Source of the DNA: Bodo saltans
Taxonomy: Eukaryota
Direction of reading: 5' to 3'
Length of the DNA stretch: 43,266 nucleotides
Assembly (NCBI GenBank): GCA_001460835.1
Contig: CYKH01000631.1
Location: 1 to 43,266, forward strand
Part shown: piece by piece, positions 808-41,067 of the stretch
Position numbering within the stretch: the stretch's first letter is position 1
Layout: each line of letters starts with the position of its first letter
The notes under the pieces: generated by a model
What the model was told of the DNA's origin: nothing
What the model saw: only the letters and a program-made list of their open reading frames with translations
Databases searched by the model: none
Position numbers and translations under genes: made by a program

Positions 808-1686
808 ATGGAGTCCAAACTATTCCACGCAGGTCACCAGGGAGAGGAGGATGGCAGGGATGAGGAAAGGCTCAGTGGTGCATCGGAGGGGTGCTCACAG
901 ACCAACACTCCAGGCTCTACCAACGGGAACCAGATCACTCCACCATCAGTGGCAGTGTCGACTCCAGGCATGATGAGTTTTAATGCTCTTGCCGCCCCGT
1001 TCGTCCCTGCGACTGCAGCACTTGGCCCGTTAAAACCGACTTCAACTGACGGCTCCACTGCGCATGAGGGCTCGCCCGTCTCAGCGTCAACTGCCACGCA
1101 GCGATTCTTTTTTCCAGTGCGCCGCTGGTACTGCCAAGTTGTTGGTCCAGTATTCCTGAAGCCCTTGGACGAGGATCAATGGAAAGAGGAGCTTGAGCGC
1201 ATGACGCAAGTGCACGTGTCAGCGGTGGCTGTCAACCCGACAGACGGGCTTCGTGCATGCATCACGCTATCCTCGACCTCTGAGTCTTTAGCGCTGTACA
1301 ACGGCAGGAACATGATCTCAAAGAACGGTACGTGGACTCTCATCGCCGAGCGTTTGGTGCCAATTATCTTGACCGACACAACAACGGCAACCGCATCACA
1401 TGGAGATGGAAGTTCAGAAGCAAAGGTGTGGGATCACAGCCGTGCAGCGCTACAACAGCTGAGCAGCATCATGGGTTGTGATGTGTTCCCCCATGAAGGG
1501 GACGATGATCTGAGCACCGATGCCCGGCGGCTGGTGGTCGACGTGCGGGAGGGTGACGCTGCCTATGCGTTGGAATGGGACGGTGGGCTGGCCAGATCTG
1601 CACAGCATGGCGGGGGTATTGTGATTGGCGACAGTGTGCGAGTGGAACGGGCTGTACGAGCAGCGCCGACGCTCCCAGCTGCGTGA
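808..1686 (+). CDS. hypothetical protein
   Basis: 292-aa ATG ORF preceded by a (CT)n polypyrimidine tract at 771..786. Coding strand consistent with neighbours. No domain recognised. Confidence 0.45.
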   Translation: MESKLFHAGHQGEEDGRDEERLSGASEGCSQTNTPGSTNGNQITPPSVAVSTPGMMSFNALAAPFVPATAALGPLKPTSTDGSTAHEGSPVSASTATQRFFFPVRRWYCQVVGPVFLKPLDEDQWKEELERMTQVHVSAVAVNPTDGLRACITLSSTSESLALYNGRNMISKNGTWTLIAERLVPIILTDTTTATASHGDGSSEAKVWDHSRAALQQLSSIMGCDVFPHEGDDDLSTDARRLVVDVREGDAAYALEWDGGLARSAQHGGGIVIGDSVRVERAVRAAPTLPAA

Positions 1687-1977
1687 ATTGTTCAAGCAGA
1701 TTCAACCGAAAAGAATGTTGATGCGTTTGTAAGAGAATACACACGGAAGCGTGCTAAAGCAGCTTTAGCAACAGAGTATCTAAAATTATTTCTTGATTTC
1801 TTTTTTCTTCACTTCTTGATGACTCCAAAATCTGATCTGTCCATTCAGTACATAAGCAGCGCAAATTGATGGTGAGAGGGTTTGCTGTGAAATAACCCTA
1901 AACGAATTATTCTCTCACGGTTTGCCTCTTCTTTCTTTCTTGACTGATATGAGAACGACTTGGTCTCTTTAGGAATT

Positions 1978-2394
1978 ATGTGTACTGCCTCTACGGTGCT
2001 GGAAAGTCTTTTCACCGACGCAGACTTCTGCTTTGTTGGGCGAGATCTGCGTTTGTATGCCTGTTGGTGTCCGTTCTCAACCTGCGTCGGGTCGCGCTGC
2101 GAATTTACGCCCCTGACGATGGTGCTGGCGGTGATCGTTTCTATTATCGGCGTAGCGGCTGCGGCAACGTATATTTTGGCCAGCAGCGCATTGAATGACG
2201 TGCAAGCGAAGCACGATGCAGAAAATGCCATTGGCACTCACCATTACCGTGATGTGTTGTTTGGTGTGTACCAGGCAAGCAGTGAGGCAGGTCACCCACA
2301 GCAGCAGCTGCCGCCCCCCGCAGCAGCAGCTAGGGAGACCACACAACTCTTATCTGCCTCTCAGAAGGCAACAAAAGGCGGCGGCACTTTTTGA
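1978..2394 (+). CDS. hypothetical small membrane protein (one predicted TM, 'MVLAVIVSIIGVAAAATYILA')
   Basis: Track ORF 1960 starts at TTG and was trimmed to the first ATG at 1978. One hydrophobic helix. Weak support. Confidence 0.25.
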   Translation: MCTASTVLESLFTDADFCFVGRDLRLYACWCPFSTCVGSRCEFTPLTMVLAVIVSIIGVAAAATYILASSALNDVQAKHDAENAIGTHHYRDVLFGVYQASSEAGHPQQQLPPPAAAARETTQLLSASQKATKGGGTF

Positions 2395-2556
2395 GCCACT
2401 TTGAAACGCGAGTGTATGTGATGATTTTGTGGTGATTTCGTTTGGTGGCGCTGGCGATGTTGTCCATGACGTTCTTTTTCAATTCGCTGTAATATTATTT
2501 TGTCATTTTTTTTTTTTGCGAGCAGAAAAGAAATATATCACGCATCAGCCGACAAG

Positions 2557-4278
2557 ATGAGACGATCTGCCCACTCCTCAATATCGTCGAGAGACGACTC
2601 ATCTGACGACTGGCGTCTCAATTCCTCGCTGAGCTCCTCCCTCAGCTCCTCTGCGTCGTCGAGCGATGACAGCGACGACGACAGTGCGAGCGACCTGAGC
2701 AGCCATATCTGCGCCACACTTGCACCAGTGATCGGGCGCACAGACGTCACAAGCAGTCCCAATAAATCTAGAGCAGCGAGGTATGTGGACCCACAAGACA
2801 CAAGCACTCCCTTCTCAAACTTATGGAGGACGCCTACTTCCTCATCACCAGGCGCATCTACTTCTCCTCCAACATCGCCAGTAGAACAGATTCATTCTCA
2901 TCGAGCTAGCATCGAAGCAGGCTTCATGGATACACATACTGTAGCTGCCACTGCTGCTGCTGCAGTTCAACACCGACCCAAAGCATCCACTCAAACGTCG
3001 CATCTTTTGTTGCGTCTTACACCAGAAGTTGTTCGGCTTGTCTGCTCATACTTGCCAACAGTGACGATTCTTCAACATGTCGTGCCGATTTGCAAATCTA
3101 TTTACGCTGCTCTAGGTGGTGGTGCCAGAAGCAACCCTCAAATCGCGAAGCATTTCTGGGAGCAGCGATGGTCGGCGTCGTACGTGAATGTGCTGCCACC
3201 CAGAATATACTCGCTGAATCGGCTCGTTGCTCGAGACCCTTCGGGGTCGCCTGTGATTGCCCACCTTCAACGTTTTGTTGTGAATGGTAGTAGTACAAGC
3301 TTTCCCTCTGAAAATGTTGCAATTGATCAGCATCAGCGCGTGCAGCATTATCTCGACGTTCGTGGCGGCAGCCTTGTCATGTCATCCGAGCCGTCACGAC
3401 TAAAGGTGATTCGTATCACAGACAGCGAGCCCCATCCTCCAGACACAGAGTCTCTGGCAATGCTTGCTGACCAGGTTGCCTCAGCCCTGCAGTGGTGCTA
3501 CCTGAACGGTTATGCTACGCCTCAGCAGAAGGTTTTGGAAGAGTCGCTCAATTTTCGCACGTCGGTTGGTATGGGCACTGCTACTCCAGAGAGGCCTGGC
3601 TTTGGTGTGATTCTGCCCATGTATCACCACGTCGTTGTACGAGGGCACGGCGACAGCGCACTGAAGTTGGAGGAGGATTGCAGGCAGATGGGCTACTCGT
3701 CACCGCCCACCGTTGCTGACCAGTCGGATTCTAGCATCACGAGACCCGTCCGGCCGTATTATCGCCTCCAAGACTTACAAATGTATTGGTGGATGTTAGA
3801 GCGCACTCTTCTCTCCGATGTGAAACACTACGCCTGGTTTGAGGAGACCAAATTGGCAGCCTGCGCTACGATCCTGAGCCCAATCGGCGGTCATGCTGCC
3901 GAGGTCCGTTTTTACGCGGGATCCCTTCAGGGATCTATCCCAAGGTTCTACGTCAAGTGCGTCATGGCACCCGCCACCTCGTTGCCTAGTGAAGACATTG
4001 TCGACAATTTCCAAGATGCCGCGGAACTCTTTTGCGGTGGTTTTGGACGTGTGGAAGTTGATGTAGCGCCCCGTGTCAGACGAGCGCACTTTGAGGAGTT
4101 GCGTGATGCGTTAGGGCTGCATCCTACGTTTCCCTTGACACTTCTGTGGAACGTAGTGTGCGGCGCAACGGGATGCGTCGCGACCATCGCGAAGCAGAAC
4201 AACAGCTTTTTGATGTCGTTTGAGCGACAAACATTTGCAGATGTGGCCGCTGCAGTGTTGAAAGACGAGACCACGTGA
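2557..4278 (+). CDS. hypothetical protein with acidic Ser/Asp-rich N-terminus (CK2-like sites) and an F-box-like helix ('LTPEVVRLVCSYLP')
   Basis: Track ORF starts at TTG 2500 and reads through a T12 tract. First ATG is at 2557. Long intact ORF of 573 aa. Confidence 0.5.
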   Translation: MRRSAHSSISSRDDSSDDWRLNSSLSSSLSSSASSSDDSDDDSASDLSSHICATLAPVIGRTDVTSSPNKSRAARYVDPQDTSTPFSNLWRTPTSSSPGASTSPPTSPVEQIHSHRASIEAGFMDTHTVAATAAAAVQHRPKASTQTSHLLLRLTPEVVRLVCSYLPTVTILQHVVPICKSIYAALGGGARSNPQIAKHFWEQRWSASYVNVLPPRIYSLNRLVARDPSGSPVIAHLQRFVVNGSSTSFPSENVAIDQHQRVQHYLDVRGGSLVMSSEPSRLKVIRITDSEPHPPDTESLAMLADQVASALQWCYLNGYATPQQKVLEESLNFRTSVGMGTATPERPGFGVILPMYHHVVVRGHGDSALKLEEDCRQMGYSSPPTVADQSDSSITRPVRPYYRLQDLQMYWWMLERTLLSDVKHYAWFEETKLAACATILSPIGGHAAEVRFYAGSLQGSIPRFYVKCVMAPATSLPSEDIVDNFQDAAELFCGGFGRVEVDVAPRVRRAHFEELRDALGLHPTFPLTLLWNVVCGATGCVATIAKQNNSFLMSFERQTFADVAAAVLKDETT

Positions 4279-11917: not shown

Positions 11918-12149
11918 AGGCACTGCAACTCAAACAGCTTGCTGACAAGAATATGTAGATTGTGAAATTTTATTCGTGTGATGTTCTTTTTTTCGACAAA
12001 ATCTCCTTCCCTCGCAATTGCACTCCTCCCTCCCCCGCCTTCACCTTGTGTATTGCCCCTCAACACTGAATAGCACTATGAATTGCGTTTCGATCTTTAA
12101 CTGTTCAGCTCCACTTTTTCCCTCTGCTCGTTGACTTCGTCAGAAAGTA

Positions 12150-14219: not shown

Positions 14220-15641
14220 ATGAGAAGAGCGCTTTGCGAACGATTACAGTCGAGCACGTTGGCCACCACTCCTACCACCACCAGCAGCCTTGGCCTTGCG
14301 CAGCGATGCATTCGTTTGAAACACAACATTCGCGCTACACCTGGGCACGAATTTCCCAGTGCGAAAGGATTTGGTGGCCATTCTTGGTGGCCGTCGCTAC
14401 CAATGATGATAGCACTTGCTGCTGGTGGATTGCTGTACGATCTCTGGGCCTCTCAGAAGGAACATGTGTGGCGGTGGCTGCAAGAGTGGTGGTGCACACG
14501 GGTGGAGCTCAGATCCGCCCAGCATCGTGAGTTGTGCGACGCATTTCTGTTTTGGTGCTCGCGCCGCACTGATGTTTTTGGCAGCCAAAATTTGTGTGTT
14601 GGGCCACCACCGTCAGAGTTGGAGCCAGCAGCAGACAATCTGAAGGAGTCCCAAGTCGCGCTGGCCCCTGGCTTTGGAAGGCATGTTCTATCCGTTTCTG
14701 TGGGAGACGGGTCGATGTCATCTCGCCGAGTAGTGTTCACCAGAGACGTTGACGAATCCATGAAACACAAAGGAGGTTTTCACCGAGGAAGCAACGGACC
14801 AACAGCTGACGAAGTGATTACGCTGACTGCCACCGGCTCTGACGCACGAGAATTTCTTCTCCGTGTCCTTAACGACGCACATGAGGAATACCGTGCCAGC
14901 CTCCAAGGTCACGCAAAAGTGTTCAGTAACGATGGTGGCTACTGGGATCAGTTGTGCTGGCGACAGTACCGGAGGGAGGACACCATGCAACTCACAACTG
15001 CACAGACACGTATTCTGAATGAAGTGAAGCAGTTCTTTGCTTCACGGCAGTCGTACGCCGCTCTGGGAGTTCCGTGGAGGAGGGGCTACTTGCTAGAGGG
15101 ACCTCCTGGCACAGGTAAGAGTAGTTTTATCTCTGTGGCAGCAGGAGCGGTGCAGGCACCCATGTACATTTTGTCGCTCCGTGACCCTCAGCTGAATGAT
15201 GCAACGCTGCTGCGAGCGGTGAACTCCATTCCGTGCGGCAGCTTTCTTGTGTTGGAAGATGTGGACAGCATTGCCGTCTCCGCCACCAGCGAACAAAGCC
15301 ATGCGCCAAGCACGATCTCCCTCAGTGGCCTGCTCAACGCAATCGATGGCATCGCGGCGTCAGAGGGAAGGCTTCTGATCATGACAGCCAATCGACCAGA
15401 GGTGTTGCCACCCGCTCTACTCAGGCCTGGTAGGATCGATCAAGTCATTCATTTTGACCAGCTCAGCTCTGTGGATGCTCGCACAATGACCCAGCGGCTC
15501 TACGCGTCGCAACTGCAGTCTGGAGGCAATCCCCAGACGGCTCCTGTGCCTCCCGATTCGAAGGCGACTAAAACAGCAGCCGAACTTCAACATGAGGTGC
15601 TTCAACGGCTCGTTTACTTGCCAAAGGCCAACGCTTCTTGA
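14220..15641 (+). CDS. BCS1-like AAA+ ATPase (divergent paralogue)
   Basis: Walker A 'GPPGTGKSS'. Walker B 'FLVLEDVDS'. 'LSGLLNAIDGIAASEGRLLIMTANRPEVLPPALLRPGRID' matches the BCS1 family. One N-terminal TM helix. Confidence 0.7.
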   Translation: MRRALCERLQSSTLATTPTTTSSLGLAQRCIRLKHNIRATPGHEFPSAKGFGGHSWWPSLPMMIALAAGGLLYDLWASQKEHVWRWLQEWWCTRVELRSAQHRELCDAFLFWCSRRTDVFGSQNLCVGPPPSELEPAADNLKESQVALAPGFGRHVLSVSVGDGSMSSRRVVFTRDVDESMKHKGGFHRGSNGPTADEVITLTATGSDAREFLLRVLNDAHEEYRASLQGHAKVFSNDGGYWDQLCWRQYRREDTMQLTTAQTRILNEVKQFFASRQSYAALGVPWRRGYLLEGPPGTGKSSFISVAAGAVQAPMYILSLRDPQLNDATLLRAVNSIPCGSFLVLEDVDSIAVSATSEQSHAPSTISLSGLLNAIDGIAASEGRLLIMTANRPEVLPPALLRPGRIDQVIHFDQLSSVDARTMTQRLYASQLQSGGNPQTAPVPPDSKATKTAAELQHEVLQRLVYLPKANAS

Positions 15642-17058
15642 TTTTTTCACGATTTTTGTCGCGACATTATGTTTTGCTCATTTTACAGGTCTCATTCAAA
15701 TGTGAAACCACGGTTTTTCTAGTTCATAATTTTTACTGTTTAAGGAAACAAAAAACGATCACATGGCCGATAAACTTGACGTTGCACGGCTCAAGCCCAA
15801 TCAATTTATTCACCTGCTGAACAACAACAGCAATGCCACCACGATCCTCACCGGCCCACTGACCTACACGAGGCTCGATCACGAGTACTTCACGACGACT
15901 TCGCCTCAACAGTACGTCAGCGTCCCTCCGCAGAAGTACTGCATCGTGCTCAACCCCGTTGTGCGTGATGCTGCAGGCGCGCTTGTGTTGGATACGCTTG
16001 GCCAAGCGAAGGTCCGACTGGGTAGCCGCGAGATCCGCTTCCACCAGGAGCCCTTTCCGCTGTATCCCGGTGAAGTGTTGCTCCAGGATGTTACCAAACT
16101 GCAGACCATTTCCGCGACGCAGGCACTCAACGTCGTATGCGAAAGTGACTTCGATGACATCCAAGCAGACGGCACTGTCGTGAAGCGTAAGGCAGGCGAC
16201 GAGTGGGTCTTACAAGGCCCCCTGACCTACCGTCCTCGTGTAGAGCTGGAGATTCAGGCTGTGATTGATGCAACGATCATCAAGGCAGATCAAGCCCTCA
16301 AAATCCGAGCCCGCTGGAACTTCACTGACAAGCGCGTCGTTGGCAAGGACGTCCTCCGCAAGGCGGGTGAGGAGTGGCTGATCACCGACGCTGGCGCCTT
16401 CATTCCCACTGCCGATGAAGAAGTGCTTGAGAGCATCACTGCCCAAGTCCTCACTGACCGTGTTGCCCTTCACGTGGTGACGGAGGTGAATTTTACCGAT
16501 CGGTTCGGAAACCCTCGTGCTGCAGGGGATGCATGGCTGGTCACAAGCGCCCAGACGGAGCTCTTTATCCCCTCGCCCGAGGAGCGAGTCGTGTCGCGAG
16601 TGCCGTTGACTGTTGTGAGCAACCGCCAGTACGCCATCGTCGAGAACGTCACCGTTGCAGGCAAGAACGTGTTGGGTCGCCGTGAGCTCCGCACTGGTCA
16701 CTGCACCTTTTTCCTTAACCCTGGAGAGTCGCTCAGCGGGGGCGACGTCAAAGATCTCTACGTCCTGTGCGCGAATGAAGCCCTTCTGCTGCGGTCCATC
16801 ACCGCCTTCACCGACGCCGCGGGTGTCTCCCATGACGCTGGTGACCGTTGGTTGATCCGCGGCCCGCTGGAATTCGTCCCGGCATTGGATGTGGAAGTGT
16901 TGGAGAAGCGCAGTGCCATTCCACTTGACGTCAATGAAGGCGTGTACATCCGCAACGTGCGCACCGGTGAAGTCCGCGCACACATTGGCTCCACGGTGTT
17001 GCTGAATGAAGACGAGGAGCTCTGGAAGAAGGAGTTGGATCCCCTTGTGGAGGAACTG

Positions 17059-17506
17059 CTGCTGACGCCAAAGCTCACGAAGACCATCACAGGTACGTCT
17101 CGTGGCGCTCCCGCTGTGTCCCGCCGTGATAAGAATCGCGTTGTGACCTGCACAGTTCCTCACTTACGCGAGCACGTTCACAAGCTGATGTTTTGTGTCT
17201 TCTCAGCGTAGAAGTTTCCAGGGCTAAACCACTACGACTACGGCCTACTTCTTAAATGACAGCACTCGGAGAGTCCACCATACGGGTTTTCCGGGCTACG
17301 GGACTTCTCGGAGACGTACGTGGAACCGGGACTCTACATGCGAGACGAGCTCGTTATCGAGACCCTCGACCACGCCCGCCTGCAGTTAGCCGTGTCCTAC
17401 AATTGGGAATTCGACCCCTCTGTTGCGGTAGATCAAGGAAGGGCATTCAGCGTCCCTGACTTCGTTGGCGATGCCTGCAAAGCGATCGCCTCCCGCATCC
17501 GCGGGC
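17059..17506. repeat. aberrant ~448-bp tandem duplicate of MVP segment 17507..17952: flanks ~95% identical, central 170 bp base-complemented
   Basis: 17059..17163 matches 17507..17611 and 17334..17504 matches 17782..17952, each with a few mostly synonymous differences. 17164..17333 equals the complement, without reversal, of 17612..17781. Confidence 0.85.
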
Positions 17507-18702
17507 CTGCTGACGCCAAAGCTCACCAAGACGATTGCTGGTACGTCTCGTGGCGCTCCCGCTGTGTCCCGCCGTGATAAGAATCGCGTTGTGACCTGCA
17601 CAGTTCCTCACAATGCGCTCGTGCAAGTGTTCGACTACAAAACACAGAAGAGTCGCATCTTCAAAGGTCCCGATTTGGTGATGCTGATGCCGGATGAAGA
17701 ATTTACTGTCGTGAGCCTCTCAGGTGGTATGCCCAAAAGGCCCGATGCCCTGAAGAGCCTCTGCATGCACCTTGGCCCTGACTACATGCGAGACGAGCTC
17801 GTCATCGAGACGCTCGACCACGCCCGTCTGCAGTTGGCCGTGTCCTACAATTGGGAATTCGACCCCTCTGTTGCTGTAGAACAAGGAAGGGCATTCAGTG
17901 TCCCTGACTTCGTTGGCGATGCCTGCAAAGCGATCGCCTCCCGCATCCGCGGCTTTGTCTCTAGTGAAACGTTTGACTCTTTCCACCGCAACTCGTCCAA
18001 TATTATCAAGCTGGCCGTGTTTGGACAAAATAAGGAGACTGGCGCTCTGAATCCCACGATGCACTTTGCTGTGAATGGACTTGTGATTACCAACGTCGAT
18101 ATTCACAGCGTCGACCCCGTTGACCCCAAGACTCGTGATGCCCTGACAAAGAGCGTTCAGCTTGCGATTGAGATCACGACGAAGTCACAGGAAGCCGTCG
18201 CTATCCAGCAGGCCACCACACTCGAGCAAGAAGCGAAGGGTAAACTCGAGCGTCAGATCATCCACGCCAAGTCTGGATCAGAAATGGAGCGCCGCCAGCT
18301 GCTGAGCGTTGAGGCGGACAATGCCGCGATTGAGTCCACTGGTGCCAGCAAGGCTCAAGCCGCCGCAGTTGCCGAGGCGACCCTTATCGAGGGGCAGTCC
18401 GAAGTCGATCTGGCCGAAAAGAGATCGGCTGCTATGGACACCAACGTTGAGGCGGAGCTGCAGGTTGAGGCGGCAAAGCAGTCTGCAGAGTTGGACTTCC
18501 GCCAAGCGTTGTATGAATTGGAAGTCGCCAAGGCCCGTGAACTCTCTCGCATTGAAACCGACAAGTTCCGCAAGACGATCGCTGCGGTTGGCAAGGACAC
18601 CATCAAGGCGATCGCAAAGGCAGGCCCTGAGCTCCAAGCGAAGCTCCTCGCTGGCCTTGGCCTCCAGGGGTACCTTGTCACGGACGGCTCGAACCCCATC
18701 AA

Positions 18703-18716
18703 CCTGTTCCCTGTTC
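18703..18716. repeat. 7-bp direct tandem duplication (cctgttc x2) causing a +1 frameshift in the MVP C-terminus
   Basis: The sequence reads 'aacctgttc cctgttc aacacc'. Removal gives ...PINLFNTAKGMTAAATGGSA*, which is collinear with metazoan MVP. Confidence 0.7.
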
Positions 18717-18804
18717 AACACCGCGAAGGGCATGACCGCTGCTGCTACTGGTGGCTCAGCATAAAGAAAGGAAACGACACCAGCGTTGTTTGCTTTGCAA
18801 GGGA

Positions 18805-18910
18805 TCAATATCCAACACACGGGTGGGTTCAACACACGGGTGGGTTCAACACACGGGTGGGTTCAACACACGGGTTCAATATCCAACACGGGTGGGTTCA
18901 ATATCGCACG
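18805..18910. repeat. compound tandem repeat (17-bp unit 'caacacacgggtgggtt' x3 plus partial units, flanked by 'caatatcc') in the MVP 3' region
   Basis: Direct reading of 18813..18863 shows three perfect units, followed by degenerate units. Confidence 0.8.
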
Positions 18911-19108
18911 ATGAATCAAACAAGAAGAAGCGTTGAAAGAAAAGGAGAAAAAAAAAACCACAATCTCAAAACAACAACAAAAATTAGCAACGACATTCTT
19001 CAAGTTTCAAGATCGAATCAAAGTGGTGGTTGCCGTGATTAATTTTTTTTTCTTTCATGTTGCAAGAAATTGAGTTATATTCTTGTTGTTGTTGTAACGT
19101 TAGAGGTT

Positions 19109-20287
19109 ATGGACGAGGCACCACCTAAGGTCATGGCGGAGATGGTCATCGGCACGGATGACGTGTTGCCCGATGTGTCCCTTCCTCCGATTCAATACAC
19201 CCCGCCTACCGACGACGATGTGAGCATTATTCTCACAACCATTGCAGGGCTCCACTACAACGGAGGAAACGCCATTGAGGGGTACGACTTGGACGTCATC
19301 CACGCAGTGCGAGATCGGCTTGATCAACTGTACTACTGGGCAGTCGAGGAGAAGCACTTTCGTGATAGCAGCCCACCACTTGTCCTCGCTAATGAACGTC
19401 TCGTCGCGTTGCTGGTGAAATTAATTGAAACTAATCGGCCGAAGATCATCGTGTCGGTCTTTAGAGCACTCCGTGAACTGCTTCTGCACCCAGCCCGCGT
19501 ACCGAACTATTCCGACTTTTTACCGCTGCTGTGCAAGTCACTACAGCAGTTCCCTAACATGGAAGACTTAGTGGAGGAGGGTGTCGCTACGATTGCAGCG
19601 ATGGCAACGGTGAACCCCGAGGCGATTCTTGTCAGCGACGGTGTCAGTGCGGTGTTACAGGCGATGCAGAAGGCACCAAATCTGCTCCCGGTGCATAGAT
19701 TTGGCTGCCTGTTGTTCGCGGCATTGGTTGATGGGAAGCGTCCGGATCCTACGGAAGCACCAGCAGCGCTCCTACTCGTCCACATTGGCGTGGTGGTAGA
19801 TTTTATGTGCCGAGCCTACCAACGCCAAACGCAGGACACTGCAGTGTCTGCTGCTGTTGCTCACACACTCGCGGTGATGGCCTCTATTCCACAGAACCAT
19901 GAAGAACTTGTGTCGCATCGATTGGTCCTTTCCACCCTCCGTCACCTCGCAGAGCACCACCACTTCACCACACGAACCGTACAAGACGCCCTCACTGCTG
20001 TGTCTGAGCTTTGCGGCGAGCTCGATCGTCTGCAGCAGCGCACCATTGCACTGTCCATCAAGGAACTCATGATGCGCACGACTGAAACAGAAACGCTGGC
20101 GACATGCGTTGCTGTCGTCCTCAAGCTGTTGCGAAATGGAGGTGAAGAGATGCAGCACTTTGTAGTGGAGAATCAAGTGCCCCAGGTTATCGCGATTGCA
20201 TTGGACCATTTTGGCGAAGACGACGACGTACTTCGCGACATCTGCATGACGGCCTTGCGAGAGATGGTCATCTCGAAGCTGCGCTGA
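19109..20287 (+). CDS. hypothetical armadillo/HEAT-like helical-repeat protein
   Basis: Track ORF starts at TTG 19070. First ATG is at 19109 (MDEAPPK...). All-helical repeat character, no catalytic motifs. Confidence 0.45.
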   Translation: MDEAPPKVMAEMVIGTDDVLPDVSLPPIQYTPPTDDDVSIILTTIAGLHYNGGNAIEGYDLDVIHAVRDRLDQLYYWAVEEKHFRDSSPPLVLANERLVALLVKLIETNRPKIIVSVFRALRELLLHPARVPNYSDFLPLLCKSLQQFPNMEDLVEEGVATIAAMATVNPEAILVSDGVSAVLQAMQKAPNLLPVHRFGCLLFAALVDGKRPDPTEAPAALLLVHIGVVVDFMCRAYQRQTQDTAVSAAVAHTLAVMASIPQNHEELVSHRLVLSTLRHLAEHHHFTTRTVQDALTAVSELCGELDRLQQRTIALSIKELMMRTTETETLATCVAVVLKLLRNGGEEMQHFVVENQVPQVIAIALDHFGEDDDVLRDICMTALREMVISKLR

Positions 20288-20434
20288 GTGAATGAAGTCT
20301 ACTGAAAAGCCTACATAGAATAGCTCACTCTCATCCTTTTCTTTGAGATCGCTGCAGTGTTGTTTTGGGTTGCTGTCTCTTTCTTATTTCCTTCGTTATT
20401 TTGTTTTTGGGGGCTTCGGTGAAGTGTAACGATC

Positions 20435-21661
20435 ATGCGCCGTCTTCTTTCATCAAGTGGCTTCGCCGCAGTGGCCTGCCGCGCCTACACCCAATATTCC
20501 GACTACAACCTGTGGGATCCCCTTCTGCTCACCGAGCAGCTCACCCCAGAGGAGCGTGAGATCAAGGACACTGTGCACAAGTACTGCCAGGAGTCTCTGA
20601 TGCCTCGTGTCACCCAAGCGTTCCGCACTGAGTCTCGCGACAAGCAGATCTTTCGTGAGCTCGGCCAGTTGGGAGTGATGGGCCCAACGATCCAAGGCTA
20701 TGGATGTGCCGGTGTCTCTAACGTTGCCGCTGGTCTCATTTCCCGCGAAATTGAGGCGGTGGATAGCGCCTACCGCAGCTCCTGGTCCGTCCAGAGCTCC
20801 CTTGTGATGTTCCCGATCAATGAATACGGCACTGAGGCCCAGCGCGAGAAGTTCCTTCCGCGCCTTGCGGCCGGTGAGCTGATTGGCTGCTTCGGCCTCA
20901 CGGAGCCCAACGCCGGATCTGATCCCATGAGCATGACGACAAAGGCGAAGAAGGTGGACGGTGGTTGGATCCTCAACGGCCGCAAGCTGTGGATCACCTC
21001 GGCACCTATTGCCGACGTTGCCGTTGTGTGGGCCAAGGACGAGAAGGGCACCATCCGTGGATTCATCGTGGAGCGTGGCTTTAAGGGCTTCGAGACGCCA
21101 GTGATTGAGGGTAAGGTGTCCCTCCGCGCTAGCTGCACCGGTGGGATTGAACTGGACAACTGCTTCGTCCCTGACGCAAACTACCTTCCCAATGCCGAAG
21201 GCCTCAAGGCCCCCTTTGGCTGCCTCAGCAGTGCCCGCTACGGCATTGCATGGGGTGCGATGGGCGCCGCTGAGTCGTGCTTTAAGATTGCTCGCCAGTA
21301 CACAATGGACCGCAAGCAGTTCGGCAAGCCGCTCGCTGCAAACCAAATTGTCCAAACAAAGCTGGCTGACATGACCACCGACATTACTCTCGCCCTCAAT
21401 GCGTGCCTGACAGCAGGTCGCCTCAAGGACCAGGGTAAGTTGTCTCACCAAGTCATTTCGATGTTGAAGCGTAACAACACTGGCAAGGCAATCCAGATCG
21501 CTCGTACTGCCCGCGATATGTTAGGCGGCAACGGTATCGTCGATGAATACCATGTCATCCGTCACGTCGTCAACCTCGAGTCCGTCATCACCTACGAGGG
21601 CACCTACGACGTCCACGGCCTCATTGTGGGCCGCGCCATCACCGGTATCAGTGCATTCTAA
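20435..21661 (+). CDS. glutaryl-CoA dehydrogenase (acyl-CoA dehydrogenase family), mitochondrial-type N-terminus
   Basis: 408 aa. Matches include '[14 protein letters not shown]', '[14 protein letters not shown]', '[18 protein letters not shown]' and a C-terminal '...ISAF'. The N-terminus '[18 protein letters not shown]' is presequence-like. Confidence 0.85.
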
Positions 21662-21842
21662 GGGAGAATGGAGCTTCCATTCCATCACGTTTGTTTTTTC
21701 ATATATCACATCCATTCCTGTAAGTGTTCGTCAAATTTGTCAATGCGAGAACTCATCAGTAATTCGTGTATGCACGATTAGTATTGACTTTGTATTTGTG
21801 GTATATGTTTCTCCTTTCCTTGTTTTTCAGTTTTGATTCATC

Positions 21843-23231
21843 ATGACTTCTGTGGGAGGTCATGTTGCACCCAGCAGCACCGTCGTGGAAGCTGCAACAG
21901 ATCTAGGAGCGCAACATGGACTTGTGAGCAGTGCGTGGAGTCATTTGAAATCGAACCCCTACTTCTCGGCTGGTGCCGGTCTGTACACACTGACCATCGC
22001 CGCGGTGGTTGGTCGCTACGCGTTCAAAATGTTCACCTCCAATGCTCGTCGTAAGTTTGTCGTGTCAATGGAGACGACGAATCGGGACCCGTCGTACGAT
22101 TGGCTGATGCAATGGCTCTCCCGTCACCCCACATTCAGTTTCCAGCAAATCAGCGTCATGACGACCAACGTGATGATTCATGCCAACGAAGAGACCACCA
22201 GTCACTGCACGTTTGCCCCATGCCCAAACATTCCGCATTGGTTCTTACACCGAGGTTGGCCAATGGTGGTCTATCGCAAGAGACAAGTTGAACGCGCAGC
22301 CGGCAGTGATGTGCTCGAGACGATCGAAATGTACACCATGGGGCTGAGCTCGCATGTCATGAAGGATATTGTGGCCGAGGCGAAGATGCAGGCGGTCACG
22401 CGCGATAGCGACAAGACTGTCATTTACCAAAATGCCGGTGGTCGCTGGACACGAGTGCAAGAGCCTCGATCTCGAAGGCCATTGTCCTCTGTGATCTTAG
22501 ACAAAAACTCCCGTGAAGAGATTTTGGAAGATGTACGATTGTTCCTCCAATCTCGAGGCTACTATCAAGAGCTGGGTGTTCCCTACCGTCGTGGGTTCCT
22601 GCTCCATGGCCCCCCTGGCTGCGGTAAGAGCAGCTTGGTGATGGCACTTGCAGGAGAGCTACGTTTGGCGATTTGTCTGCTCAGCCTCAGCAACCGAGCT
22701 CTGGACGACGAGTCTTTGATGTCGCTCCTTAACACCGCGCCGATGAGGTCCATTGTGCTCATGGAAGATATCGATCGCGCCTTCTCTCACGACAGCCGTG
22801 TCACAATGAGTGGCATTCTCAACGCACTCGATGGCGTTGGTGCCCAGGAGGGCCGTATTGTTTTTATGACGACCAACCACGTGGAGCGACTGGACGCCGC
22901 GCTGATTCGACCAGGACGTGCAGATGTGAAGGTGGAGATCGGCTACGTGTCTCACACCCAGGCTTCGCAGCTGTTCGCTAAGTTTTATCCATCTAGCTCT
23001 CATCGCGTGAGGGAAGCGTTCGCAGATGCGCTGCCTGAGTTCCGTTTATCTGTGGCGCAGATCCAAAGTCATTTATTCCTTCACAGAAATAGCGCGGAGG
23101 AGGCGGTGCGGACAATGCCGGCATTTGTGCGACAGTGCGACGCCTTCGAAGAGCAACTGGACAAGGCACGGGAGAAGGAGCGTAAATTAGCGAAGCTGAA
23201 GGCTCCCCCGCTGTTGCCGTTCCAGCAATAA
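21843..23231 (+). CDS. mitochondrial chaperone BCS1-like AAA+ ATPase
   Basis: N-terminal TM and BCS1_N-like region. 'YRRGFLLHGPPGCGKSS', 'IVLMEDIDRAF', 'LNALDGVGAQEGRIVFMTTNHVERLDAALIRPGRADVKVEIGY'. Confidence 0.8.
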   Translation: MTSVGGHVAPSSTVVEAATDLGAQHGLVSSAWSHLKSNPYFSAGAGLYTLTIAAVVGRYAFKMFTSNARRKFVVSMETTNRDPSYDWLMQWLSRHPTFSFQQISVMTTNVMIHANEETTSHCTFAPCPNIPHWFLHRGWPMVVYRKRQVERAAGSDVLETIEMYTMGLSSHVMKDIVAEAKMQAVTRDSDKTVIYQNAGGRWTRVQEPRSRRPLSSVILDKNSREEILEDVRLFLQSRGYYQELGVPYRRGFLLHGPPGCGKSSLVMALAGELRLAICLLSLSNRALDDESLMSLLNTAPMRSIVLMEDIDRAFSHDSRVTMSGILNALDGVGAQEGRIVFMTTNHVERLDAALIRPGRADVKVEIGYVSHTQASQLFAKFYPSSSHRVREAFADALPEFRLSVAQIQSHLFLHRNSAEEAVRTMPAFVRQCDAFEEQLDKAREKERKLAKLKAPPLLPFQQ

Positions 23232-23436
23232 AGGCGAACTACTTGATTGCTTGTATTGGTGTGTGGGTCTGCTGGGGCCCCACCCTTCGTTCATGTTTGA
23301 AAGAACACTTCACATCACAAATTCTTCATTCATTTCAACTTAACTACATTTCTTGTCTGCTAATGATCGTCACCACAGTGACTGCTGGTCATTACTATTT
23401 CTTATGCGTTGCTCTGTTGGTACAGTACATTTATAA

Positions 23437-24840
23437 ATGCCAGCGAATGGCTGGTTGTTCATCGACAATGGCGGGTACTCGTTAAAAGCGATGTTTTTGG
23501 CGAGCGACGCACCAGCGGCGACCAAACCAGCGTATGTTGTTGTGCCCAACGCTGTCGGTGCATCTGCTTCCATTGGCAGGGGCATCGTAGGGACGACGCT
23601 CTCGACGCTAAACCAGTATCACTCGCTGCTGCTCCGGCGACCACTCGATCAAGGACTGCTGGTGGATGGGGAGCTGCAATCTTTCATCTGGGATAGTGTT
23701 CTGCAGCACTTCACCATTGTCGATGAGCAGTCGATCGACTTGTTGTTTACTCTCCCAATCGGAACCCCTGAGGCCGTGTCGGAGCAGTGGGTGAGCGCGC
23801 TGATGCTCGGCTTCCGATTTCGCAGCGTCACCATCGTCAGCAGCAGTTTCCTTGCGCTGGTTGGCGCTGAGGTGTTGCACGGCACCCCAACCACGGGCAC
23901 CGGTATTGTTGTAGACTGCGGCTTTTCCGGGTGCACCATCACACCATACGTGGCGTATCGCCCCATGCGCTCGTCCATTGGCAGGACGTTGGTCGGTGGT
24001 AAGTTGTTGACCAACTGCTTGAAAGAAACGTTGAGTTTCTCCCAAATGAATCTTCTGGAGGACACATGGATCGTCAACTGCATCAAGGAGTCCTGCTGCA
24101 GAGTTGCTGAGGAGGGAGGGCCGCTCTCATTGCAGCGGATGCTGAAGGCCGCAAGCAGAAAACGAGCCCGTGACGATGCCGATGACGTTGCGTCACCAAC
24201 AGCCGCCGTTGGGGGACCTCTTGTCTATGCCCTGCCCACTGTCCCAGCAGCGATGCCTGCTGGATGCATCGCACAACCGCAGCAGCTCAAAGGTTGTTTC
24301 CGTGACGCGCAAACAGTGAAAGTGGCGCATGAAAGCTTCATCATCCCAGAAGTGCTGTTTTCACCGTGTGATGTTGGCCTCGATTCTAGCCTTGGGGTGG
24401 TAGAGGTCTATCAGCACGTGGTGTGCAGTGAGAGGACGTTGCTTGCCCAACTTTCACTTGTGTCACCGTCCGTGTGCAGGAACACGGTTGTGTTTGGTGG
24501 CACGTCGAACCTTCCTGGCTTCGTGTCGCGCTTTCAAAAGGACGTGACCGCTGATAGCTGCCAAAGTCTCATTGCGGGAGCACCAGTCGTCCGCTCCACT
24601 GCTGTGGAAGGTGACGTGCCTTCCATCAGTAGTGTTTTGGGTGCTGCGTCATCACGGTCGATCAAACATCGCACGCAGGAACTGTTGCCTCTCGTCGGGA
24701 TCAAAGCGCTCATGACGGCAACAAGTGGACATCTGGCTGGGCTCCGCTCTGACATGCAGCAGCGCGGCGGTGTTGTGGTGAAGGGGACCCCCAAACAAGC
24801 CTTAGAATCGTTTCAAAAGGCTGTGTCAAGACTGCTGTGA
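23437..24840 (+). CDS. actin-related protein (divergent ARP)
   Basis: Actin-fold landmarks: 'LFIDNGGYSLKAMF' (phosphate-1), 'GIVVDCGFSGCTITPYVAY' (phosphate-2), 'VVFGGTSNLPGFVSRFQKDV' (adenosine motif). 467 aa with insertions. Confidence 0.6.
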   Translation: MPANGWLFIDNGGYSLKAMFLASDAPAATKPAYVVVPNAVGASASIGRGIVGTTLSTLNQYHSLLLRRPLDQGLLVDGELQSFIWDSVLQHFTIVDEQSIDLLFTLPIGTPEAVSEQWVSALMLGFRFRSVTIVSSSFLALVGAEVLHGTPTTGTGIVVDCGFSGCTITPYVAYRPMRSSIGRTLVGGKLLTNCLKETLSFSQMNLLEDTWIVNCIKESCCRVAEEGGPLSLQRMLKAASRKRARDDADDVASPTAAVGGPLVYALPTVPAAMPAGCIAQPQQLKGCFRDAQTVKVAHESFIIPEVLFSPCDVGLDSSLGVVEVYQHVVCSERTLLAQLSLVSPSVCRNTVVFGGTSNLPGFVSRFQKDVTADSCQSLIAGAPVVRSTAVEGDVPSISSVLGAASSRSIKHRTQELLPLVGIKALMTATSGHLAGLRSDMQQRGGVVVKGTPKQALESFQKAVSRLL

Positions 24841-32539: not shown

Positions 32540-32652
32540 TTCGATTAACATGATGACTTCTCATTTAACACTCGCTCATTCTACTTGCAAATACATGAGT
32601 TTTTCCCGTTTTCCCTGTTTATTTTTATCTCTCAGTCAAACAACAAACGTCA

Positions 32653-34980
32653 ATGCACCGATCGAATCTACTTGGAGAGAGCAATGCAGGCGGTCTATTG
32701 AACGGGCGCTACCAGCTGCTTGAGATTATTGGCAAGGGCGCCAACGCAGTTGTGTATCGTGCAACGGACATCACCGCTGCCCGTGGTGCTACGCCAACGG
32801 TAGCGCTAAAGAAAATTATTCAAAAAGGCATAGGACGTGGAGCGGAAAGCGATGACGTCGCACATTGGCGTCGAGAAGCAGATCTCTTAAAATCTCTTCA
32901 CCACCCCAACATCGTCCAATATTTTGATGACTTTGTCGATGAGGAGGGGAACATGTACATCGCTATGGAATACGCTGCTCAGGGCTCTCTTCTTTCACAA
33001 ATTAAGCGCGTGCCACTTGCAGAAGAAGTCGCCGCCCCGTTCCTGTTTCAGACCTTATGCGGCCTTTCGTATCTTCATCGACGAAAAGTGATTCACCGCG
33101 ACATAAAAGCAGCAAACATTCTGCTCGGAGAGTCCGGCGTCGCAAAGCTTACCGATTTTGGGCTTGCAACACCGACTGAAGCAACCGGACAAAAGATGGA
33201 ACAGCTCACGATGCTGGTAGGGTCTGTGTACTGGATGTCCCCGGAAAGCATCTCGAAGGGTATCCAAAGTGAATCAGGCGACGTGTGGTCCGTGGGCTGC
33301 ACGGCGATTGAGCTCGTCACAGGAGTCCCACCCTTCTTTGACCGCACTCCGGTGAATGCCTTGTACCACATCGCCGAGAGCACTGAGTCGCCAGTACCAA
33401 ACACTGTGTCGGAGCTTATGCAGGATTTCCTTGCATGCTGTCTCCAGCGCAACCCTGATGTGCGCGCAAAACTGACAGAACTCGTGCACCACGAGTGGTT
33501 CGCCTCTTGTGGCGTAGACACAAGTGTTGTCCCGGATGGTGACCTTGCATCTTTGCTGTCAACCACGCACAATTCTAGTGGGTCTCCGGCTGGAGGGGCG
33601 GTGTCGTCGATTGCACAAGAAGTGGAGCGTTATTTATTTGGCGATCGCTTAGCAGAACGTGAAGATTGGCTGAAGAGCGGAGGCTTAGCGACTGCAGTGA
33701 ATGCGCTGACAACCATTACAGCCGAAGACAGCTATCGAATTGTGCGGAGTTTGGCATTCGAGTCCCAACGAGCAGCGTCGGAATCATCTGTCTTCTTTGA
33801 ATCGCTTGGAGACACAGAGTTCTGGGGACTAGATTTGGTCGTGTTAGCCACGATGGATACTGTTGCCACACTATTTAGTGACTGCTGTGACCATCAGCCT
33901 CCCACTTGCCGAAACTATGCACCGTCACACAAGCACGCCCTTCAACTTGTGTTGCGGTCTAGTGACGTTGGTCCGCAGTGCATCTCCGCACTTCACCGAC
34001 TTTTGGTCTGTCGCTTGGATGGAGAGGCATCGGCATCAACAGACGCTCCGAAGAATCGTCGTGAGCTTCGCCACTCCTCGATGTACATCGCTCCCACTGT
34101 GTCCACAGATGCGGCTCGTGTTAGATTTCTTGCCGACGACGGGATCGCCGTACTTCGGGATATTGTGCAGAGTATGTGCCTCCAAGCATTCCGAGAAAAG
34201 ACGGAGCCACTTGTTCGCTGGGAGAACATTGATAAGCTTTTGGAAATCGTCTTATCCTTTGCACCGGCTGCAGGGAGCGATCAGGAGGACAACCTGCCCA
34301 CCATGGGCGACAATTGGCTGATTGCTGTGCAGGAGGCCTGCATGCATAATTGTCCCTCCGCACTGCATCTCCTGATGTACTCCATCGACTCACGTGACGG
34401 CATTGTGTCGGGAGAGCGCGTCATTGTGGGCCGACTCATTTCGGTAGGCTCACAGCCCCTCCTCGATTACGAGACGAGACTGAAGGTGGCTGAGTGCCTC
34501 CCAAGGCTGCAGGCGCAGTACCCAGAGGCCTCCAAGGCGTTATGCGACGTACACGGCAATATCCCGCTGATTACGCACATGATGCGCCACGCTCCTCCAT
34601 CCGGCTCGGTGGATTCGATGTTGTCTGTCCTCACTGCATTATGTGAGTCAGGGGATATGGCAGAGGCTTGTGCATCGTACGACGGAATGCTGACGCTAGT
34701 AATTCAGAAGATCTTAGAGGCCCAACAACGCGGGTCCCCGCAGTGCCTAGACCGCAGCTTGCGGCTCACAGAACTGCTTTTTAGTCGAGCACCCCATCCT
34801 GAGTGGTTTGTGACATCCAGGCAACTTACCCAGCGGCTGATTGAGATTATAGGTACGCCCAGCCTTAACGTTGAATCTTCAGGCAATCCTGAAAGTGCGG
34901 ATGCGAAGTGCAGAACGTCAGCAGTAACACGTGCAAAGAGACTGCTCAATGCGTTGGCAGCGCAATCCATTAGCGTGTAG
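32653..34980 (+). CDS. serine/threonine protein kinase, STE-group-like (Cdc15/MAP3K-epsilon-like) with long C-terminal helical-repeat region
   Basis: 'IGKGANAVVYRA...ALKKI', 'HRDIKAANILL', 'DFGLATP', 'WMSPE', 'DVWSVGCTAIEL'. About 500 aa of C-terminal ARM/HEAT-like helices. Confidence 0.75.
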   Translation: MHRSNLLGESNAGGLLNGRYQLLEIIGKGANAVVYRATDITAARGATPTVALKKIIQKGIGRGAESDDVAHWRREADLLKSLHHPNIVQYFDDFVDEEGNMYIAMEYAAQGSLLSQIKRVPLAEEVAAPFLFQTLCGLSYLHRRKVIHRDIKAANILLGESGVAKLTDFGLATPTEATGQKMEQLTMLVGSVYWMSPESISKGIQSESGDVWSVGCTAIELVTGVPPFFDRTPVNALYHIAESTESPVPNTVSELMQDFLACCLQRNPDVRAKLTELVHHEWFASCGVDTSVVPDGDLASLLSTTHNSSGSPAGGAVSSIAQEVERYLFGDRLAEREDWLKSGGLATAVNALTTITAEDSYRIVRSLAFESQRAASESSVFFESLGDTEFWGLDLVVLATMDTVATLFSDCCDHQPPTCRNYAPSHKHALQLVLRSSDVGPQCISALHRLLVCRLDGEASASTDAPKNRRELRHSSMYIAPTVSTDAARVRFLADDGIAVLRDIVQSMCLQAFREKTEPLVRWENIDKLLEIVLSFAPAAGSDQEDNLPTMGDNWLIAVQEACMHNCPSALHLLMYSIDSRDGIVSGERVIVGRLISVGSQPLLDYETRLKVAECLPRLQAQYPEASKALCDVHGNIPLITHMMRHAPPSGSVDSMLSVLTALCESGDMAEACASYDGMLTLVIQKILEAQQRGSPQCLDRSLRLTELLFSRAPHPEWFVTSRQLTQRLIEIIGTPSLNVESSGNPESADAKCRTSAVTRAKRLLNALAAQSISV

Positions 34981-35021
34981 AGTGTTCGAGATACAATTTT
35001 GTGCGTCACTTAGCTTTTCTA

Positions 35022-36968
35022 ATGATGTTGTTGCTGCTACTCATTGCATTCTCATCGTTTCTGTGTGATAGTGTTGCAGAGATGCAAAAAGAAAGTGATC
35101 GCCCCTCGTGGATGCGTGATGTCAAGCGCAAGTTGCAGCGCGAGATGTTGATCAAACAAGCCCAGCCGGGTATGGCGACTCAATCAAAAGTTCACTACGC
35201 GTTGCAACTCCGACGACGCAATGAAACCTTCCGAGCCAACGCACCGCCCATTGCGTCAGAGTACTCGCCGACCATCATTCCATTCTCAGGAGAAGAAGTC
35301 AAACATTTCAACGGAACTATCCGCCCCTCAGGCAGCCAAAAGATTCCCCTCGACTCTCTGGGACGCACAGCTCCCTTGTCGATGGCTCCCACAGGAAGGT
35401 CTAAGCTTGCTGATGCAGTAGGAAGGCACATGGCAGGGAAGGGCTTCGATGCTCTGACCTCGCAAATGTTGACGTCGTACATGCTAGAGCATCCCGCGGC
35501 AGTGGAGCAGCTGCGCAAGGAACTCAAAGCAGAACGAAACGTGCATCGCAAGGAGAGAGCGCTGCAGGCAGCCGGTCACAAGCACGTCTATCCAGAGGAA
35601 TTACTTTTTGGTGGCCGCACCACTGCGTTCCCAAAAGCACCAATGGAAGAGTCTGCAAAAGACTTGACGTCCACAAGAACAGGTGGACCCTCAAAGATTT
35701 TGGAAGATTGTGCCACGACGATTGAGGAGGAGCGCTTTGAGCTACGGCCCGTTGTCATATTTCGCGAAGGCTTTGCCAAATCTGTGTCACATCGCGTCAG
35801 CCAAGTGCCCTCGACTACGGAGGGCCGCGCCTTTCTGGGAGACTTCTTTCCAACGTATGTGTGCCAGGGCATTCCAGTGACATTTGATCCGCCAACCGTG
35901 GCGACTCTCACCGCTCAAAGCGGCCGAGCAACAGACGCAGTCGTGGCCCAACAGACAGAAGATTTCGGCACATTGGAGTTCATGCCCATCCTTGAGGAAG
36001 TGCACGCATTGAGAGCACAGTATGCCGCTCACGTCTCAGAGGCAATTCACCCCCCTCGTCGATCGCCCACCCCCCAGCCATCAGGCGCTAAAGACACGCG
36101 GCCACGTCTAGAACCTGAGGAGCTGGACATGATGGAACTCCAACTAAGCCGCGCTGCAGACTCACAAGTAGAAAAGCGGCACAATCCCATTGCACGTGTT
36201 GTCGAGGCCCCTGAGGGGCTTCTGAAACAACTGCTGAGGGAAGTAGACTCGGACAGCGAAGGCAGCGAGGACGAGTTAGTCGATCAACGGTGCGTCATTT
36301 GTCACACCGCCAACGCCGAGGATCACTCAACCGGACCAGGCGGAAAGCTACGAAGCCTCAAGAGAGTTCCAAAGAGCAGCCTTGGCAGCAGCAACCGTGC
36401 CGCGGAGGCACTCCTTCGATGGAAAGCAATTCATCAGTTGTCTCAAGTGGATGCAAACGCATCGCTGAACTCACTTCTCATGTCGCGCGATGAACAAAGT
36501 CGAATAGTACGGCAGAATTTGAAGTCCCTAGCTGAAGTCTCCGAGAAGGCGAAACGAGACGCTGAGGGATGGCTGCGATCACGAAGCGGCGCGTCGCCAA
36601 CGCCCAACAACAGTTGTTGGACAGGGCCCTGTCATCGTATCGTTCAGCAACGAATTCGATGGCAAAGTTGCGTCAAGTTTTGGGATCGGCTGATTCAGTT
36701 TCTCGGCCTCTTGCAGTGGCCCCAGACGGAGAGCCAACTAGAGCTCATCCAAACACTTCAGACTATCATCGAAGGCCAGGGATACTTATCTCCCTGCACA
36801 TTGTTATTCTGGTTACATGCCAGTGGCCCACAGCTTTGTAAAGTGCGCGAGTATTATCGTGTGTTGGTATATGTTCGTGCAGCCCTTGGACTTCCCCATC
36901 GAGTGCTCCAAGCATGGGTGAAGCTTCCGTCGGTGCGTTCTGCCGGCTTTGATCTCGCATCGGACTAA
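35022..36968 (+). CDS. hypothetical protein with hydrophobic N-terminus (signal/anchor-like 'MMLLLLLIAFSSFLC')
   Basis: Track ORF starts at GTG 35001. First ATG is at 35022. Long intact ORF, no domain recognised. Confidence 0.45.
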   Translation: MMLLLLLIAFSSFLCDSVAEMQKESDRPSWMRDVKRKLQREMLIKQAQPGMATQSKVHYALQLRRRNETFRANAPPIASEYSPTIIPFSGEEVKHFNGTIRPSGSQKIPLDSLGRTAPLSMAPTGRSKLADAVGRHMAGKGFDALTSQMLTSYMLEHPAAVEQLRKELKAERNVHRKERALQAAGHKHVYPEELLFGGRTTAFPKAPMEESAKDLTSTRTGGPSKILEDCATTIEEERFELRPVVIFREGFAKSVSHRVSQVPSTTEGRAFLGDFFPTYVCQGIPVTFDPPTVATLTAQSGRATDAVVAQQTEDFGTLEFMPILEEVHALRAQYAAHVSEAIHPPRRSPTPQPSGAKDTRPRLEPEELDMMELQLSRAADSQVEKRHNPIARVVEAPEGLLKQLLREVDSDSEGSEDELVDQRCVICHTANAEDHSTGPGGKLRSLKRVPKSSLGSSNRAAEALLRWKAIHQLSQVDANASLNSLLMSRDEQSRIVRQNLKSLAEVSEKAKRDAEGWLRSRSGASPTPNNSCWTGPCHRIVQQRIRWQSCVKFWDRLIQFLGLLQWPQTESQLELIQTLQTIIEGQGYLSPCTLLFWLHASGPQLCKVREYYRVLVYVRAALGLPHRVLQAWVKLPSVRSAGFDLASD

Positions 36969-39294: not shown

Positions 39295-39419
39295 TGACGA
39301 AAGAACGCTAGGAAAATGCGATCACACGAAATTCAGTGATTATTTCGTCGACAATGTACAATGTTGCCAAATTTTGTCCTACATTCACAGGTTGTTTTGT
39401 TTCACTCATATTAAAGAAA

Positions 39420-40814: not shown

Positions 40815-41067
40815 TATGAATGTGAAGGGGGTGATTTTGTCATTTAGCTATTTTGGGATTTAGGGCCACACACAACGAGAGTACACTTTTCAACTTTACC
40901 ATGATCATGAGACCTTATGTTCACGTAAGCGCTGATATTTCTTGTGCTCGCAACCGTCTAAAAGATTCGAAGGTAAATTCACGGCAACCCTAAATACAAA
41001 CTCTAATAAGCAACCATATTACACACCCACCCCACATACTTTTTCCGTCCCCACCTATTCGTCGAAT

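Follow-up and report, generated by a model that had tools for sequence, protein, structure and literature searches.

Does the gene for the major vault protein (MVP) in Bodo saltans really carry a stretch of DNA that has been complemented in place without being reversed, or was that stretch created when the reference genome of strain Lake Konstanz was put together? The question was raised by an initial annotation of a 43,266-nt piece of this reference (the whole stretch analysed here, referred to as the window), according to which positions 17164..17333 complement 17612..17781 base for base (Watson–Crick) while keeping the same 5'->3' order, between flanks that are direct copies at about 95% identity. 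Base-by-base comparison after complementing one segment bore this out without exception: the two segments were complementary at 170/170 positions and directly identical at 0/170, and the counts for reverse complement (42/170) and for reversal only (50/170) stayed at chance level. The block has sharp boundaries (as written, TCCTCAC/TTACGCGAGC on the left), is colinear with its partner, and is adjoined on both sides by direct copies, which are as close as had been claimed (Table 1).

We then compared the window with itself by an all-against-all seed-and-extend scan covering four classes of match (direct, reverse-complement, complement-only, and reverse-only). The pair 17164..17333/17612..17781 was the sole complement-only exact match of at least 20 nt. 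Chance alone would give a longest match of this class of about 15 nt in 43 kb and is thus excluded as the origin of one spanning 170 nt. In a codon-usage scan contrasting the native and the complemented sequence, the same block gave the top signal for a complement that codes better than the native strand. Neither the self-comparison nor the codon-usage scan detected a second complement-only block in the 43-kb window, out of an assembly of 39.9 Mb in total; the runner-up in the latter, 39151..39360, was the ordinary end of a gene with intergenic sequence after it.

Pfam domains identify the affected locus as one MVP gene, intronless and cut into two open reading frames (ORFs): Vault, Vault_2, and Vault_4 were assigned to ORF 15763..17211, and Vault_3 and MVP_shoulder to ORF 17465..19042. 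The genes around it are likewise long intronless ORFs, packed on the + strand. Because the MVP gene is intronless in a kinetoplastid, there are no exons here, and the earlier description of the partner segment as exon sequence had to be dropped. The stop codon at 17209..17211 is created by the block, so that the first ORF ends 48 nt inside it, and the reading frame is shifted since the repeat unit in which the block lies measures 448 bp (3 × 149 + 1); both the stop and the +1 shift had been correctly noted from the sequence.

Table 1 Features of the MVP locus in the window
Feature	Position	Strand	Basis or remark
Authentic 5' part of MVP, 467 codons	15763..17163	+	Vault repeats; 97.9% colinear with L003 up to exactly 17163
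Spurious gene model 1, 482 aa	15763..17211	+	Identical to CUG07485.1 / A0A0S4J1A8, 'major vault protein, putative'
448-bp tandem repeat	copy 1 17059..17506, copy 2 17507..17954	+	Block lies in the middle of copy 1
Left flank of copy 1	17059..17163	+	100/105 identical to 17507..17611
Complement-only block	17164..17333	+	Watson–Crick partner of each true base, same 5'->3' order
Right flank of copy 1, resembling an alternative allele	17334..17504	+	164/171 identical to 17782..17952; 170/171 to L003
Two-base junction GC between the copies	17505..17506	+	Matched by neither copy (three-way alignment)
Spurious gene model 2, 523 aa	17471..19042	+	Identical to CUG07493.1 / A0A0S4ITY6, 'Hypothetical protein, putative' (P0021)
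Copy 2, complete 448-bp unit, correctly written, continuous with 3' part of MVP	17507..17954	+	Colinearity with L003
Rest of the 3' part of MVP, ending with the true stop (18762..18764), in two frames owing to the 7-bp duplication	17955..18764	+	L003 alignment
7-bp tandem duplication CCTGTTC/CCTGTTC, +1 frameshift	18703..18716	+	Exact search; absent from L003

Both truncated products exist as public protein records, and both bear the marks of the lesion. The last 15 residues of CUG07485.1, LREHVHKLMFCVFSA, come from the complemented block, being encoded by its first 48 nt. The N-terminus of CUG07493.1, MPAKRSPPASAGLLTPK..., crosses the junction from the tail of copy 1 into the head of copy 2; the wrong frame of the copy 1 tail supplies its first 12 residues, and frameshifted 3' UTR its last ~110. 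An exact-sequence look-up placed both proteins on one 60,358-nt NCBI contig of Bodo saltans. Since the broken ORFs are these two records, the lesion resides in the deposited Lake Konstanz reference and was not planted in the window; the records directly verify positions 17164..17211 and everything from 17471 onward, the rest of the block being seen in this window only.

The same records bear on the suggestion, which the initial annotation had left standing, that the block was a deliberate lesion, either edited into the window or engineered into the organism. A perfect 170/170 correspondence with sharp boundaries does look designed. However, the 482-aa product with its block-derived tail and the 523-aa product spanning the junction are NCBI and UniProt entries, and the strain is a wild lake isolate that was sequenced from bulk culture. 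We therefore rejected this explanation on the strength of the exact matches and regard it as extremely improbable.

Independent sequence of the locus came from a protein search, in which P0001, an 848-aa protein from a Logan assembly, was 99% identical over its full length to the rejoined MVP; P0021 (523 aa) was 100% identical to the second half of the rejoined MVP only. The gene for P0001 lies on L003, a contig of 3,109 nt assembled from SRR9332771, a shotgun DNA metagenome sequenced by MiSeq (2x250) from a hydrocarbon-degrading enrichment culture (PMC7012980); because the source is shotgun DNA, L003 is genomic DNA of a wild Bodo saltans-like strain. L003 aligned to the window at 97.9% identity over 15414..17163, then showed a gap, and resumed at 17507 up to 18849, with its positions 1640..2977 colinear with copy 2 and the 3' part of MVP. 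This strain, 2–3% diverged from the reference, thus has a single 448-bp unit without the complement block. Comparison with orthologues, which had been proposed as a check, gave the same answer at the protein level: P0001, P0122 (JGI), P0002, and P0003, of 848–887 aa and 79–99% identity, all run uninterrupted through the segment and lack the block. As a separate observation, L003 and a further contig, L001, reveal a Bodo saltans-like flagellate with 97–98% DNA identity to the reference in the metagenome of a hydrocarbon-degrading enrichment from groundwater; 'Bodo' and 'flagellate' have 0 occurrences in the paper describing SRR9332771 (PMC7012980).

Searches for further sequence of the MVP segment yielded little. 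A same-strain contig, L002, from RNA-seq of strain Lake Konstanz (SRR11935165; PMC8163844), was 99.84% identical to the window but begins at 19542, beyond MVP; PacBio reads of this strain are deposited as SRR11932788. It was obtained, together with L001, with the acyl-CoA dehydrogenase (ACAD) gene, and the two cover 19505..24449. Exact look-ups in the contig index with the 482-aa ORF, P0021, the upstream BCS1-like ORF, and the downstream 405-aa ORF returned no match. A W/S-coded pattern for the left boundary, designed to fit the normal and the complemented form alike, gave 0 matches in JGI metagenome contigs; the normal version was absent from them too, so this search was uninformative. A related-locus search with the intact MVP found only relatives at ≤54% identity, and a protein search for same-strain fragments with the duplicated segment only found shorter distant proteins only.

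To our knowledge, all known polymerases and all repair and recombination pathways make antiparallel complements, and none yields a complement that is not reversed, which leaves the block without a biological source. A copy truly present in the cell's DNA would call for parallel-orientation strand copying by a DNA-copying chemistry not yet known. The window contains no second block of this kind; the block disrupts a conserved gene within a false duplication of the sort that assembly errors typically produce, and the independent DNA of L003 lacks it; we take the probability of such copying to be practically nil.

The relationship between the two copies of the 448-bp repeat offers a further line of evidence. 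After re-complementing the centre of copy 1, we counted 12 internal differences between the copies, all of them in the flanks. In the MVP frame, 11/12 fall at codon position 3 (4/5 in the left flank and 7/7 in the right), and 10/12 are synonymous, compared with 24% expected for random substitutions in this sequence (P = 2.6e-5). In its right flank, copy 1 differs from the wild strain L003 at 1/171 positions and from copy 2 at 7/171, so it is closer to the former. After re-complementing, the copies agree throughout the central 263 bp; L003 has a single difference there, which makes this core no more than a well-conserved stretch. Because the differences are mostly third-position and synonymous, a signature of purifying selection, the copies read, on sequence grounds, as two functional versions (alleles or near-identical paralogues) that were stacked by the assembler and show no signature of decay. 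At the two-base junction, 17505..17506, we observed that each base is the complement of the one expected (C at 17953 and G at 17058); this might be one more, very small, complement-only scar, or a coincidence (about 1 in 9).

These patterns weigh against a more conservative explanation, in which the 448-bp duplication is real, MVP is a pseudogene at the Lake Konstanz locus, and the 170-bp complement is the only software error. The tandem junction is present in the deposited assembly, MVP contains a second frame-breaking lesion (described below), as a decaying pseudogene might, and another MVP paralogue, P0055, which we found in Bodo saltans, could cover the function. Yet a real, frame-destroying insertion of 448 bp would release both copies from selection, and later differences would then spread over the codon positions, which is not the pattern seen. 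Moreover, the wild strain and all close orthologues are single-copy, copy 1 is nearer in its right flank to another strain's allele than to copy 2, and tandem duplicates at closed gaps are a familiar error of gap closers. We consider a real duplication improbable.

The second lesion is a 7-bp tandem duplication 1.2 kb downstream in MVP, just before the true stop, and it is responsible for the nonsense tail of ~110 aa in CUG07493.1. It is probably a second scar of gap closure or joining. Its presence qualifies the expectation, stated in the initial annotation, that deleting 17164..17611 would restore a contiguous MVP reading frame: the deletion does rejoin the frame, but it does not by itself restore the native protein, as the 7-bp duplication remains. 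When one 448-bp unit and the 7 bp were both removed in silico, the product was 848 aa long and identical to P0001 at 841–842 of the 848 positions (99%), ended in the same C-terminus (NPINLFNTAKGMTAAATGGSA, then stop) as P0001, P0122, P0002, and P0003, and carried Vault, Vault_2, Vault_3, Vault_4, and the shoulder domain in one polypeptide. Further on, in the 3' UTR of MVP at 18813..18875, lies a 17-nt tandem repeat (ACACGGGTGGGTTCAAC-like) with more copies than in L003, where the alignment breaks; the extra copies may reflect natural variation in copy number or a further fault of the assembly.

How the reference was built provides a setting for such errors. The Lake Konstanz genome was sequenced by Illumina HiSeq only, from libraries of 500 bp and 3 kb, and was assembled by SGA correction, Velvet 1.0.18 (k = 41), and SSPACE, followed by GapFiller and IMAGE, with the cycle repeated three times; finishing comprised five rounds of iCORN and splitting by REAPR (PMC4728078). 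The window contains no N runs, so all its gaps were closed. Gene calling marked ORFs >100 aa (PMC4728078), which accounts for the two separate models given to the halves of MVP. Misjoins and indels made by these gap closers are described in the paper on GapFiller itself. Neither that paper nor the one on IMAGE mentions lower-case or strand handling, or a half-done reverse-complement bug, and a phrase search of the literature ('reversed but not complemented' and similar wordings) returned deliberate control designs only and no reports of an assembly artefact.

One sequencing technology could generate this geometry directly. In the two-base encoding of SOLiD, which is invariant under complementation, two colour miscalls, if each flips the decoding by the 'complement' permutation, would cause every base between them to be written as its complement, giving a colinear complement block of any length. 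The symmetry fits, but all Bodo saltans libraries were Illumina HiSeq and the Velvet assembly was made in base space (PMC4728078). We rejected this candidate for that reason and put its probability at next to nothing.

Taken together, we consider it very likely that the block is an artefact of assembly or gap-closure software in the deposited reference and is not in the organism's DNA, because the lesion is present in the deposited records, the pipeline closed gaps iteratively, an intact single copy exists elsewhere, the copies bear a signature of selection, and the repaired product is a regular protein. The initial annotation's preference for an assembly or editing artefact over biology therefore holds. 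Against this reading, the intact copy comes from another strain, 2–3% diverged, and both REAPR and iCORN left the block in place, though no read should map there. Against a software bug in particular, the window contains no other such block to indicate a systematic error.

As to how the artefact could have come about, the true locus would be one intact intronless MVP gene of ~848 codons. Two slightly different versions of the 448-bp stretch may have been laid head to tail, and not merged, during iterated scaffolding and gap closure: the variable arms would have been assembled twice but the core common to both a single time, with the pieces then set in series by a scaffolder or gap closer. The 170-bp piece bridging the contig end at 17163 to the alternative-allele piece at 17334 would then have undergone a half-executed reverse-complement operation. 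Three routes can be envisaged. A minus-strand piece may have been reversed and not complemented; a plus-strand piece may have been complemented and not reversed; or a scaffold may have been reverse-complemented by a case-sensitive transliteration (tr/ACGT/TGCA/), which lower-case gap-fill would escape. Each of the three would leave an in-place, colinear complement, since rev(RC(x)) = comp(x). The case-sensitive route is attractive because the pipeline was iterated with scaffolds flipped between rounds, and because Perl tools of this pipeline family presumably use routines in the style of tr/ATGC/TACG/. We infer which program and which bug produced the block from these considerations, and any particular software mechanism is offered only tentatively, as one possibility that could well turn out to be wrong.

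For the biology of the organism, the consequence is that the MVP gene of Bodo saltans at this position is most likely intact and ordinary. For data quality, it follows that CUG07485.1 / A0A0S4J1A8 and CUG07493.1 / A0A0S4ITY6 are halves of one gene with nonsense tails. Bodo saltans is the key free-living outgroup for inferring which genes were gained and lost when trypanosomatid parasitism arose, and split or truncated models in the reference can bias such counts. The reference has 18,190–18,936 gene models, compared with 11,121–13,166 across seven Bodo genomes from single cells; genes split in the way MVP is could contribute to this excess. It is doubtful that complement-only blocks form a systematic, unreported class of error in assemblies of the SSPACE/GapFiller/IMAGE era; if they did, genes would be silently split and gene counts inflated. 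A complement that is not reversed escapes normal repeat and alignment tools, and a complement-only self-scan is a cheap means of detecting it.

Several other loci in the window deserve mention. Two BCS1-like AAA ATPase genes (BCS1_N and AAA domains), at 14220..15641 and 21837..23228, flank the group formed by MVP, an unknown ORF, and the acyl-CoA dehydrogenase gene; L001 and L002 also show the second, as a gene of 462 aa. ORF 40936..42420 of this kinetoplastid contig has three repeats of MHYT, a domain whose description is that of an N-terminal repeat in bacterial signalling, and it overlaps the next long ORF, 42158..43063, by ~260 nt in another frame; the overlap may be another frameshift or split gene. 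A protein-kinase ORF, 32599..34977 (793 codons), abuts 34974..36965 (664 codons, no Pfam match) with a 4-nt overlap and a change of frame, and the pair may represent either separate genes or a single gene broken by an indel error.

Among known systems, the locus most resembles the haplotype stacking associated with SSPACE, GapFiller, and IMAGE, in which near-identical versions (here ~96%) are placed head to tail and no Ns are left. The 448-bp unit is about the size of one library insert (400–500 bp), the differences between the copies look allelic, independent assemblies have a single copy, and a small 7-bp tandem scar lies nearby. Unlike ordinary false duplications, which are direct copies throughout, the repeat has a middle of 170 bp that is a non-reversed complement. 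In this respect, the block is like the products of strand-handling bugs (reversal or complementation alone, or case-sensitive transliteration): it lies in place, with sharp boundaries and 100% fidelity. It also shares with SOLiD colour-space errors an in-place A<->T, C<->G permutation over an arbitrary length, and differs from them in that the platform was not used here. The repaired gene is a regular member of the MVP family, ~50% identical to the MVPs of Dictyostelium and others; it departs from that family only in its database representation, as a gene split into entries of 482 and 523 aa.
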